From: a virus
Taxonomy: Duplodnaviria > Caudoviricetes
Virus record (IMG/VR): IMGVR_UViG_3300042196_000418
Strand: one strand, 5' to 3'
DNA: 64,000 bases
Part shown: positions 39,653-42,613 of the stretch, piece after piece
How the letters are laid out: each line of letters begins with the position of its first letter
Position numbering within the stretch: position 1 is the stretch's first letter
Position numbers and translations under genes: made by a program
Notes under the pieces: model-generated
Database searches by the model: none
What the model was told of the DNA's origin: nothing
The model's input: the letters and a program-made list of their open reading frames with translations, nothing else

Positions 39653-39708
39653 GCTCCGCCGCCGAATCGAACGGCGACTTGCCGCGGAATACCGCGACCC
39701 TTCGGAGC
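39653..39708 (-). ncRNA. tRNA-like intergenic structured element (copy A)
   Basis: Minus strand: GCTCCG outer stem, CGCGG-TATT-CCGCG hairpin, CGCCG-TTCGATT-CGGCG T-arm, then CGGAGC. Confidence 0.5.
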
Positions 39709-39716
39709 TGCCGTCG

Positions 39717-40070
39717 TTAGTCCAGGTCCTGGCCGAGCAGGGCGTGGACGCGGCGACGGTTACGGTTCATGAAGTGACGCTGCGATCGCCAGTGCGGGAA
39801 TGCCTCCACCCCGCCGTCGAACGGCAGCGCGTAGTACGGCGAGGCGTAGCCGTAATACGGCAAGGAGCTGTAGCCGTAGCCGTACGGCCAGCCGCCCCAG
39901 CCCCAGCCGCCCCAGCCGCCCCAGCCGCCCCAGCCGCCCCACCATCCGCGACCGCCGTGACCGCCGTGACCGCCATGACCGCCGCGACCGCCATGACCGC
40001 CGCGACCGCCATGACCGCCATGCCCGTGACCGCCACCAGCGCCGATGCTCGTGTATTGACCGCGTGCCAT
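39717..40070 (-). CDS. Gly/His/Trp-rich arm-only protein (GGH, GGW repeats)
   Basis: Start MARGQY directly after the stop of the 40073 gene; resembles the N-arm of 41845-42531. Confidence 0.65.
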   Translation of the reverse strand: MARGQYTSIGAGGGHGHGGHGGRGGHGGRGGHGGHGGHGGRGWWGGWGGWGGWGGWGWGGWPYGYGYSSLPYYGYASPYYALPFDGGVEAFPHWRSQRHFMNRNRRRVHALLGQDLD

Positions 40071-40072
40071 GA

Positions 40073-40960
40073 CTACACCGCCGCCGTTCCGACCATCGCC
40101 CCGAAGAAGGGCGCGCCGCTCTCGTTGAGGCCGATGTACGTGACCACCACGACGACGTCCATCGCGGTCTGCGCCGATTCGAAGCGAACGAACGTGTCGA
40201 TCGCGTTGGTCGCGAAGAGATCGCCCGGCACGTCGCCCGACTGCACGAACTGCGAGCGGTTGCCGATCTTGATGTCGTTCACGATCCAGTCGGCAGCGCC
40301 GCCGGCCGTGCCCGCGTTCGAGATCACGAAGCGGCCGATCTTGAAGACCAGCGTCTGTGGGCGGCCCGTGATCTGTGCCGACTGCGTCGGCAGGATCGGA
40401 ACGCCCGTCGACATCGGGAGGATGTCCCGGTTCGCCTGCGTCGGCATCGGAGCCGCCACCACCGCAGCGCGCGGCGGGAATGGGAAGCCGTCCGGTGGGG
40501 GCAACTGCCCAACCATCGGACCTGTGATGTCGTACCATCCGGCCGTCTGCGGCGGCGCGCCTGTCGGCGACGGCGCGCCTTGTGGAGGCGGGCCTGCCGG
40601 CGCGGGCTGTTGCGGAACCGGAACAGGCACCGGAACAGGAACCTGGACTTGCTGCTGCTGCGCGAGAAGAGCGAGATAGGCTGCGTAGCCGCCGTACATC
40701 GCGTACGGATCGACGACCCCGTACCCGCCGTACATCGCATACGGGTCATAGGCCGGGTACGGATAGGGATAGCCGCCGTAGCCGAAGCCGCGGCCACGAC
40801 CATGGCCGTCCCAGCGACCTTGCATGCCGGGACTGCGACCGCGACCGCGACCGCCGAAGCCGCCGCCGCCGCCACCGCCACCGCCACCGCCACCGCCATG
40901 CTGCTGGCCGACGACGTCGTACCACTGGCCAAGGAGTGCGTAGATTTGCTGTCCGTCCAT
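40073..40960 (-). CDS. Putative major shell/capsid protein copy 5 (Gly/Tyr-rich arm)
   Basis: Conserved C-domain PPRAAVV...MVGTAAV; capsid role is inference. Confidence 0.8.
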   Translation of the reverse strand: MDGQQIYALLGQWYDVVGQQHGGGGGGGGGGGGGFGGRGRGRSPGMQGRWDGHGRGRGFGYGGYPYPYPAYDPYAMYGGYGVVDPYAMYGGYAAYLALLAQQQQVQVPVPVPVPVPQQPAPAGPPPQGAPSPTGAPPQTAGWYDITGPMVGQLPPPDGFPFPPRAAVVAAPMPTQANRDILPMSTGVPILPTQSAQITGRPQTLVFKIGRFVISNAGTAGGAADWIVNDIKIGNRSQFVQSGDVPGDLFATNAIDTFVRFESAQTAMDVVVVVTYIGLNESGAPFFGAMVGTAAV

Positions 40961-41132
40961 GAGAGATGACCTTTCGATTCAGCTAGCGATCAGTGGACGC
41001 GCGCTTGCGCCACCTGGAGCAGGACGAACCTCGCGCTCGAGGTCGGCTCGCGGTCGAGCGCTCAAAGCGCCGAAAAACGTCGACGCCCTCAGCGCAGGAT
41101 CGTGTAGCTCGTGTCCGTTCATTTGTTTCCGC

Positions 41133-41172
41133 GCTCGGACGAGGAATCGAACCCCGCACGCCACTGCCGAGC
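41133..41172 (-). ncRNA. Minimal tRNA-like element (acceptor-like stem + T-arm; copy C)
   Basis: Minus strand: GCTCGG..CGGGG-TTCGATT-CCTCG-T-CCGAGC. Confidence 0.45.
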
Positions 41173-41183
41173 TGCCACTGCGA

Positions 41184-41762
41184 CTAGACCGCCGCCGTAC
41201 CGACCATCGCCCCGAAGAAGGGCGCGCCGCTCTCGTTGAGGCCGATGTACGTGACCACCACGACCACGTCCATCGCGGTCTGCGCCGACTCGAAGCGAAC
41301 GAACGTGTCGATCGCGTTCGTCGCGAAGAGGTCACCCGGGACATCGCCCGACTGAACGAACTGCGAGCGGTTGCCGATCTTGATGTCGTTCACGATCCAG
41401 TCGGCAGCGCCGCCGGCCGTGCCCGCGTTCGAGATCACGAAGCGACCGATCTTGAACACCAGCGTCTGCGGACGGCCGGTGATCTGTGCCGACTGCGTCG
41501 GCAAGATCGGAACGCCGGTCGACATCGGGAGGATGTCCCGGTTCGCCTGCGTCGGCATCGGCGCGGCAACCACCGCAGCGCGCGGTGGGAACGGGAACGG
41601 ATACCCGTTCGGCGGCGCCATCATCTGCTGCGGCATCGGAGGCGGCGCCATCATCTGCTGGGGCGGTCCGCCGTTGGCCGCTGCCGCTGCTGCGGCCTGC
41701 CCGACGATGTCGTACCACTGGCCAAGGATTGCGTAGGGGTTTCCGTACTGCTGTCCGTACAT
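41184..41762 (-). CDS. Putative major shell/capsid protein copy 4 (short Pro/Gln/Met arm)
   Basis: Start MYGQQ at 41762 with AGGA upstream; same C-domain. Confidence 0.8.
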   Translation of the reverse strand: MYGQQYGNPYAILGQWYDIVGQAAAAAAANGGPPQQMMAPPPMPQQMMAPPNGYPFPFPPRAAVVAAPMPTQANRDILPMSTGVPILPTQSAQITGRPQTLVFKIGRFVISNAGTAGGAADWIVNDIKIGNRSQFVQSGDVPGDLFATNAIDTFVRFESAQTAMDVVVVVTYIGLNESGAPFFGAMVGTAAV

Positions 41763-41844
41763 GGTGATTGTCCTTCCTGTTCCTCGTCGCGTTTCGGCGC
41801 GAGAGGATTGTTCCTCGCACACCACTACAGAGCTGCTGTTTCGA

Positions 41845-42531
41845 CTAGATCGCCGCCGTACCGACCATCGCCCCGAAGAAGGGCGCGCCGCTCTCGTTGA
41901 GGCCGATGTACGTGACCACCACCACCACATCCATCGCGGTCTGCGCCGACTCGAAGCGAACGAACGTGTCGATCGCGTTCGTCGCGAACAGATCGCCCGG
42001 CACGTCGCCCGACTGAACGAACTGCGACCGATTGCCGATCTTGATGTCGTTCACGATCCAGTCGGCAGCACCACCGGCCGTGCCCGCGTTCGAGATCACG
42101 AAGCGGCCGATCTTGAATACCAGCGTCTGCGGACGACCCGTGATCTGCGCCGACTGCGTCGGCAAGATCGGTACGCCCGTCGACATCGGGAGGATGTCGC
42201 GGTTCGCCTGCGTTGGCATCGGAGCCGCCACCACCGCGGCGCGCGGCGGGAACGGGAAGTTCATGCCGGGTGGCGGACCCGGAGGCAAACCAGCCTCCTG
42301 TCCCAAGAGTACGACGTCGGGACCGATCACCCGCCCCGCGGGCAGATCGAGCGTCGGATAGCCGTAGCCGTACGGGTAGCCGGCATAGCCAGCATAGCCG
42401 TACGGCCAGCCGCCCCAACTGCCCCAGCTGCCGCCCCATCCACTACGACCGCGCTCGCCGCGCTCGCCGCGACCGCGACCGCGGTCACCACGTTCGCCGC
42501 GCTCGTTGCCGATGTAATCGCCATACGCCAT
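41845..42531 (-). CDS. Putative major shell/capsid protein copy 3 (RG/GW arm)
   Basis: AGGAAGG RBS; same C-domain ending AAI. Confidence 0.8.
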   Translation of the reverse strand: MAYGDYIGNERGERGDRGRGRGERGERGRSGWGGSWGSWGGWPYGYAGYAGYPYGYGYPTLDLPAGRVIGPDVVLLGQEAGLPPGPPPGMNFPFPPRAAVVAAPMPTQANRDILPMSTGVPILPTQSAQITGRPQTLVFKIGRFVISNAGTAGGAADWIVNDIKIGNRSQFVQSGDVPGDLFATNAIDTFVRFESAQTAMDVVVVVTYIGLNESGAPFFGAMVGTAAI

Positions 42532-42555
42532 GGGTTGCCTTCCTTTTTTCCTTCG

Positions 42556-42613
42556 AGCTCCGCCGCCGAATCGAACGGCGACCTTGTCGCGTAAACCGCG
42601 ACCCCTCGGAGCT
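42556..42613 (-). ncRNA. tRNA-like intergenic structured element (copy B)
   Basis: Near-copy of 39653-39708; middle hairpin differs (GTCGCG-GTTTA-CGCGAC) but still pairs; identical T-arm. Confidence 0.5.

Follow-up and report, generated by a model that had tools for sequence, protein, structure and literature searches.

A family of covarying tRNA-like RNA elements behind the stop codons of a viral jelly-roll gene array, and their possible reading by host ribonuclease P

This work concerns small elements, built like the acceptor and T-arm half of a transfer RNA (tRNA), that follow the stop codons of a gene array in an uncultured tailed-virus genome from soil (Duplodnaviria; Caudoviricetes; IMG/VR record IMGVR_UViG_3300042196_000418). 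The window, by which we mean the whole stretch of 64,000 nucleotides (nt) that was analysed, is part of a 288,627-nt contig with 63% G+C. Five tandem genes on its minus strand have a common 138-residue C-terminal domain and differing low-complexity arms, and an arm-only gene comes next. Structure prediction gives the domain an all-beta jelly-roll fold (predicted local distance difference test, pLDDT, 73.7). An earlier reading of the DNA alone (the sequence-only reading) spoke of shell genes. That they are capsid genes is a reasonable inference and not a result: the best structural match (Z 7.9, root-mean-square deviation 3.7, 119 aligned) lies within background, with viral and cellular jelly rolls tied. 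In the order of transcription, the array and its elements are:

43728 to 44432, minus strand: array gene 1, jelly-roll domain; 2-nt gap to gene 2, without an element
42622 to 43725, minus strand: array gene 2, low-complexity arm and jelly-roll domain; upstream of copy A
42553 to 42612, minus strand: copy A, long form (type II); covariance model, 82.9 bits, and fold prediction
41845 to 42531, minus strand: array gene 3, between copy A and the decayed copy D
41795 to 41833, minus strand: copy D, decayed short form; 20 of 24 nt as in copy C
41184 to 41761, minus strand: array gene 4; upstream of copy C
41129 to 41172, minus strand: copy C, short form (type I); covariance model, 57.2 bits, and fold prediction
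40073 to 40960, minus strand: array gene 5; 2-nt gap to the arm-only gene, without an element
39717 to 40070, minus strand: arm-only gene rich in Gly, Trp and Tyr; upstream of copy B
39649 to 39708, minus strand: copy B, long form (type II); covariance model, 80.7 bits, and fold prediction

The three intact copies lie where the sequence-only reading had placed them, behind the stops of genes 42622, 41184 and 39717. In copy A, whose first base (G+1, at 42612) comes 9 nt past the TAG of its gene, an outer stem (42612-42607/42562-42557) stacks on a T-stem (42581-42576/42568-42563); an AGGG linker and a middle hairpin (42602-42586) separate the two 5' strands, the T-loop occupies 42575-42569 and the tail U-C-G-A 42556-42553. 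Copy C does with less: an outer stem (41172-41167/41138-41133), a 9-nt CAGUGG linker, a T-stem of 6 base pairs (bp), a T-loop at 41151-41145 and the tail G-C-G-G, with G+1 at 41172, 11 nt past a TAG. Copy B (T-loop 39671-39665, tail A-C-G-A at 39652-39649, G+1 at 39708, 8 nt past a TAA) closes the array behind the arm-only Gly-rich gene. The predicted fold of all three is also their minimum-energy fold (z -3.05 for A, -3.30 for B and -0.65 for C). The decayed copy suspected behind gene 41845 is real: copy D retains the leader, 5' stem, UAGUGG linker and T-stem of copy C, has lost the T-loop and the 3' outer strand, and gave no match with covariance model R1.

What stands out is the combination and not the loop. 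The heptamer TTCGATT by itself is not enriched in the window (11 observed, 7.0 expected), whereas the full stack of 6+6 bp with its T-loop occurs three times there and in none of 200 shuffles. ARAGORN called no tRNA gene and no transfer-messenger RNA (tmRNA) in the window, and Rfam returned nothing at its gathering score for the window and seven loci, chance matches with E up to 10 apart. No intrinsic terminator was called at the elements and no U-tract follows any copy. Inspection by eye for a kink-turn or a three-way closing pair at the tail showed no consistent pairing.

The element is conserved well beyond this window. Relatives lie on metagenome contigs of up to 502 kilobases (kb). Two covariance models (R1 and R2), seeded by a pairing scan, were run over 525 kb, and the analysed set holds 53 copies from 38 sources; all strong matches in these 525 kb follow an array gene, jelly-roll or arm-only, in the sense orientation. 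In a held-out test, four of five loci fetched later yielded 8 further copies, for a total of 61 copies from 42 sources. Since the scan that seeded alignments A2 and A3 itself requires pairing, their values of 100% and 99.5% paired are inflated; fairer tests are the held-out loci and the model-selected set, in which 576 of 588 stem cells are paired. The short form carries double changes in 5 of the 6 T-stem pairs, a covariation score that none of 500 shuffles reached; the long form is less variable, yet consistent with pairing. Outer pair 5 flips between G-C and C-G from one form to the other (24 vs 23). On the transcribed strand the stems hold G-U 46 times and A-C 3 times, which argues that the structure acts in the transcript and not in DNA or in the antisense strand. 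This is a real, covarying and conserved family of RNA tRNA mimics. The mimicry first proposed from a single genome gains from this covariation, from the fixed length of the stack, from the invariant G53/U54/C56/A58, from the sense-strand G-U bias and from the eight held-out copies; the search of homologous loci found the structure conserved.

Placement is as regular as structure. Where a jelly-roll gene ends, the next gene abuts it (gap of at most 6 nt) at 56 junctions, and of about 55 other junctions 32 carry an element (counting that of locus L046, described below); its absence from the coupled junctions is trivial, a gap of 6 nt or less being too small to hold it. In most complete loci the last element closes the array. 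The distance from stop to element runs from 8 to 60 nt, is at least 8 nt in all but two cases and is most commonly 8 nt after UAG, the upstream stop in 39 of 49. Short and long forms occupy the same type of junction behind the same kind of gene, and they are interspersed on the tree of those genes (a weak tree, with 2 starred branches), which suggests that the middle hairpin is dispensable.

Across the family the stack always totals 12 bp, the length found in tRNA, bar single bulged or decayed copies, and it is divided in an unusual way. The outer stem has 6 bp in both forms and begins G-C, C-G, U-A, C-G, four pairs that are nearly invariant (C2-G71 in 47 of 49, U-A at pair 3 in 44 of 49). The inner stem was first described as having 5 bp; the stack and loop of that description stand, and its length does not, a sixth T-stem pair being possible in 50 of 53 copies and a 7+5 split in only one, while true tRNAs in the same pairing scan are mostly 7+5. 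The T-stem changes freely in sequence, apart from its closing pair G53-C61 (48 of 49). The T-loop has 7 nt (TTCGATT in 40 of 53 copies, close variants in the others), with U54, C56 and A58 invariant.

Between the stems, the short form has a linker of 9-11 nt with AAGUGG, and the long form has AAGG, a 6-bp hairpin with a variable loop of 3-6 nt, and then 3-5 nt. The sequence-only reading had noted the lack of a D-arm and of CCA. The first is right for the stem; nevertheless, the conserved AAGUGG or AAGGG linker supplies the GG of a D-loop. This GG and C56 are conserved and never covary; the GG may dock on the T-loop in the manner of the elbow contact G19-C56. As for CCA, it is indeed missing from the window (tails U-CGA, G-CGG and A-CGA), but the relatives tell more: their tail is N73-C74-(G/C)75-A76, with C74 in 51 of 51, G75 in 38 and C75 in 10 of 51, and A76 in 40, and five of them encode N-CCA. 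Position 73, the discriminator, may be A, G or U and is a purine in 44 of 51. The leader consensus is R-R-Y-A, and both flanks, R-R-Y-A and N-C-G-A, are kept while the neighbouring spacers vary. Positions -1 and 73 are unpaired in 38 of 51 copies and -2 and 73 paired in 25 of 51; an extension of leader with tail around a bulged A is possible in many short-form copies, and was rejected as a general feature because it fails in the long form. About nine divergent copies have an added hairpin of 7-8 bp that ends at -1 or -2.

Two relatives deserve a separate word here. In L046 (1174-1234) the upstream TAG ends on the element's own G+1, and the tail is an encoded A-CCA. On L067, a distantly related contig, four tRNA-Leu genes (CAA, CAG, GAG and TAA; 934-1836, minus strand) with short variable regions and without encoded CCA lie near a distant jelly-roll gene, and the cloverleaf tRNA genes of this contig end A-CGA and A-CGU.

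What, among known RNAs, does the element resemble? The closest working likenesses appear to be the t-elements of plant mitochondria and mascRNA. In plant mitochondria, mRNA ends have been mapped at t-elements (Forner et al. 2007, PMC1920247), which lie at mRNA boundaries, combine a conserved T-arm with a stem like that of the acceptor, depart from the canonical cloverleaf and are proposed RNase (ribonuclease) P/Z signals. The structural and positional hallmarks of such elements are found here: a T-arm of the GTTCRANYC type, a covarying acceptor-like stem and a cis placement at gene boundaries on the transcribed strand. Unlike them, this element belongs to a bacterial virus-like genome, its would-be reader is a bacterial, RNA-based RNase P, and it is known from sequence; the 6+6 split, the CGA (N-C-G-A) tail, the interchangeable forms and the use of several copies in one operon set it apart. 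A search of the literature, thin on subscription journals, found no dedicated t-elements described in phage structural operons.

The mascRNA and menRNA of MALAT1 and NEAT1 (PMC8457004) are likewise small mimics without a true anticodon arm, and their 5' cut forms the 3' end of the RNA upstream; with them the element would share a stabilising structure that ends at the cut site, an A at -1 and, in many short-form copies, a possible leader-trailer pairing. In contrast, those are single-copy parts of eukaryotic long non-coding RNAs that use a triple helix and not a hairpin, and the bulged-A extension is unformed in most long-form copies here. Bacterial RNase P has non-tRNA substrates of its own, among them 4.5S RNA, pre-tmRNA, phage M3 RNA, P1/P7 C4 RNA, the his and other polycistronic mRNAs and T4 gene 32 (PMC11143913). 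Phage RNAs and operon mRNAs are thus cut by the host enzyme, as may be the case here; the substrates listed in that review are small-RNA precursors or single mRNA sites, however, and we found none described as a dedicated, repeated T-loop mimic after structural-gene stops.

Other candidates were set aside. The long form has the topology of the tRNA-like domain of tmRNA: an acceptor-like stem, GG in a D-loop that lacks a stem, a connecting helix where a tRNA has its anticodon arm, and a T-arm. That identity was rejected: pair 3 is U-A (U3-A70, not G3-U70) in 44 of 49, the discriminator varies among A, G and U, the tail is CGA, the stack is split 6+6, there is no tag open reading frame (ORF), and neither ARAGORN nor Rfam reports a tmRNA. 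YrlA Y RNAs (PMC4201824) are also non-coding mimics of the tRNA elbow, found in phages too, and one YrlA is cut by RNase P; unlike the element they have a full D-arm, a Ro60-binding stem, another order of arms and an adjoining Ro60 gene. With no Rfam match, no D-stem and no TROVE domain in the flanking gene tables, this candidate was dropped as well. A canonical tRNA gene is excluded by the missing D-stem, by a middle hairpin that has a loop of 3-6 nt or is absent, and by the 6+6 instead of 7+5 split; one spurious ARAGORN call, a tRNA-Ala, overlaps the copy in L038.

The elements are not the only structured RNA in this operon. Two further features of the window belong to a second conserved leader:

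40979 to 41122, minus strand: 47-codon upstream ORF, frame-conserved, starting 9 nt after copy C
44440 to 44637, minus strand: second leader motif in a longer copy, preceding array gene 1, without tRNA mimic and without in-frame upstream ORF

The 47-codon ORF traverses the second leader RNA (about 41104-40975) ahead of array gene 5. In the loci this motif has 50 copies, each made of a long variable hairpin with compensatory changes and 2-3 short hairpins with a RAGYGC-type loop; it has no Rfam match and is a candidate protein-binding translational operator. Many of the relatives' elements, too, are followed within about 10-20 nt by the start of a short ORF that crosses this leader. Among the 28 internal leaders with an upstream ATG, this ATG is in frame in 26, and in 27 the hairpins gain or lose bases without shifting the frame; the stop codon of the ORF usually lies about 21 nt short of the following start codon. 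It may be the act of translating the leader that matters, more than the peptide. A third class of hairpin was seen at uncoupled junctions behind the jelly-roll stop in L041, L042, L049, L061 and L062: 7 bp with a bulged A, 5 covarying bp and an AAGCC-type loop, within a longer stem that includes the stop codon. It has a GU-A-GC...GC-AC core in common with the element, and no T-loop.

Among the five paralogs of this genome (40073-44432) the jelly-roll domains have a protein identity of 99-100% and a DNA identity of 94-95%, which suggests gene conversion among them. More diverged copies of the domain, in a multi-domain fusion and as single copies, lie at 12566-15392, 22198-22698 and 53407-54006 of the window, with a tRNA mimic after none. 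Outside the relatives, the array protein found no match in IMG/VR and none in GenBank phages; GTDB genomes gave six weak partial protein matches, in metagenome-assembled genomes of Actinomycetota, which are not used as evidence. Two patterns of the element were searched in IMG/VR with no match, and GenBank phage DNA gave chance matches only. Downstream, a small ORF lies behind the last tRNA mimic, in the window (39633-39481, minus strand, overlapping the start of gene 39614 in another frame) as in L002, L014, L016, L075 and L086-L089; the relatives' ORFs have a common HVGQQSQN motif that is degenerate in the window. In L088 (4545-6077) and L094 (6959-8551) the gene after the array encodes 510-530 amino acids with a faint LAGLIDADG_3 match, possibly an intein or a homing nuclease, and its called start in L094 overlaps a decayed long-form element.

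How might the element work? We tentatively favour, at just short of an even chance, a phage t-element with a site at G+1 where host RNase P would divide the structural transcript, probably at a slow rate. Processing of the elements by RNase P or RNase Z, as the sequence-only reading suggested, is plausible. RNase P measures the 12-bp stack of acceptor and T-stem from the elbow, and nucleotide analogue interference mapping (NAIM) places interference at G19, G53, A58 and G71 (PMC11143913); even plain acceptor/T-loop hairpins are cut (PMC11143913; PMC4919913). The counterparts of these determinants are conserved here, namely the 12-bp stack, the 7-nt T-loop, G+1, G53, A58 and G71, and together with the conserved R73 and C74 they favour a cut 5' of G+1. 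R73 and C74, in the proportions given above, supply the first two bases of the RCCA pairing; the family as a whole falls short of a full 3' RCCA, which is not an absolute requirement, CCA-less precursors being cut in vivo (PMC1874595). The tRNA genes of L067, with their ends A-CGA and A-CGU, also speak for this reading.

The elements would then be cis-acting folds that imitate, within the structural transcript, the portion of a pre-tRNA measured by RNase P. Docking of the linker GG on the T-loop would form an elbow, to which the host enzyme would bind before cutting at 42613|42612, 41173|41172 and 39709|39708; the middle hairpin would be dispensable. With position 75 mostly G instead of C, cutting would be slow or partial, G75 acting as a brake. 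Each cut would part one block of abutting genes from the next, every block downstream would open with a 5' stem and have a ribosome-binding site to itself, and blocks of different lifetime would set the ratio of jelly-roll paralogs and arm-only proteins. By analogy with MALAT1 and mascRNA (PMC8457004), the hairpins at -1 or -2 would cap the upstream message after a cut at +1. Abutting genes, tRNA mimics and structured leaders together fit, and do not prove, post-transcriptional control of subunit ratios.

Several observations weigh against such cutting. A pre-tRNA with G75 was cut more than 100-fold more slowly by the RNase P of B. subtilis at 2 mM Mg2+ (PMC1874595, Table 3), and G75 is the base of the majority of copies here. 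The E. coli enzyme has its leader optimum at A(-2)/C(-4), and a G at -1 to -4 or a stem-loop in the leader acts as an anti-determinant (PMC9433436); the R-R-Y-A leader lacks that optimum, and the roughly nine copies with an added hairpin carry it in the leader. A cut at G+1 in L046 would deprive TAG of its final base and leave a non-stop mRNA. The YrlA paper (PMC4201824) attributes RNase P cleavage to a 7-bp acceptor stem, against 6 bp here. The 12-bp ruler, moreover, is common to RNase Z and the CCA-adding enzyme and does not single out RNase P. RNase Z itself is blocked by CCA and by long 5' extensions (PMC1874595), and because of the latter it is the poorer candidate as first enzyme. The G75 tail, the non-optimal leader and, for RNase Z, the long 5' extension argue against efficient cutting by either enzyme.

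Some of the same features would suit an element that is never cut, acting instead as a 3' barrier. RNA cut further downstream would be trimmed back to N-C-G-A, as happens at the 3' ends of tRNAs, stabilising the upstream structural genes relative to the downstream ones, and the near-CCA tail would be tuned against RNase P through G75 and against RNase Z through C74. G75, the majority base, slows RNase P, and C74, which is invariant, may by itself suffice to block RNase Z; a terminator-like stabiliser is expected at the array end that the last element closes, the 8-nt minimum after the stop would, from ribosome geometry, let the fold survive a terminating ribosome, and L046 is compatible. We nonetheless consider the barrier rather unlikely: a plain hairpin would suffice without the exact 12-bp stack, G+1 and T-loop, a further hairpin directly 5' of the element would be redundant, and C75 variants (10 of 51) are tolerated. 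It is also unlikely, in our view, that the reader is a protein encoded by the phage, be it an elbow-measuring nuclease, a translation regulator or Arg/Gly-rich arms acting in assembly or packaging, with host enzymes playing a minor part. Four nearly invariant outer pairs and conserved flanks beside a free T-stem do suggest that sequence is read at the acceptor end, host tRNA does not have the 6+6 split, and the second multi-hairpin leader in the same array implies control at the RNA level; however, RNase P too makes contact with G1-C72 and G71, a canonical T-loop would be superfluous for a private reader, and no RNA-processing enzyme was found among the scanned window proteins (64 of about 289 kb).

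The two remaining explanations are far weaker. tRNA 3' halves serve as the phage attachment site (attP) in other viruses (PMC7230728), and the interspersed forms on the weak gene tree could mean that modules moved or were converted, so the elements might be tRNA-derived, att-like DNA recombination sites that made the array, the alternative offered by the sequence-only reading. This is largely refuted and very improbable: both acceptor strands are present and covary, the 46:3 bias lies on the transcribed strand, types I and II differ in sequence as no crossover site would tolerate, the repeat shared among the genes (family D1) stops at the stop codon, about half of the junctions have no element, and the flanking gene tables show no integrase; an attP-type tRNA fragment was rejected on the same grounds. 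The other, that the stems make ribosomes read through or recode the stop codon and so lengthen or fuse the jelly-roll proteins, is disfavoured to the point of being barely credible. In its favour, the commonest spacing is 8 nt after UAG, as in retroviral readthrough signals, and the frame after copy A's stop is open into gene 3; yet the spread of distances shows no preference of frame (modulo 3, 15/10/24), the following ATG is in frame in only 11 of 48, and several frames meet a stop after a few codons.

To return to cutting by RNase P, a fuller version of it, which we hold to be doubtful, is a tRNA-punctuation system in which the 6+6 mimic, its CGA tail detuned from CCA, lets the host enzyme cut a set fraction of transcripts and, with the abutting genes and the leaders with upstream ORFs, sets the ratio of capsid paralogs. 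L046 is a natural test case for the RNase P model, and in the 40-nt short form nature offers a test, backed by covariation, of the enzyme's needs: 6+6 against 7+5, no D-stem, and CGA against CCA. Rfam has no entry for the element, which can be mistaken for a tRNA. Cut, it would serve synthetic operons as a compact and portable processing tag; uncut, it would be a tRNA mimic that evades the host tRNA-processing enzymes and is read by something else. If the RNase P reading is true, the tRNA punctuation of mRNA would extend from organelles and MALAT1 to the viruses of bacteria, and a virus with near-identical capsid paralogs on one transcript would have a way to set their amounts.

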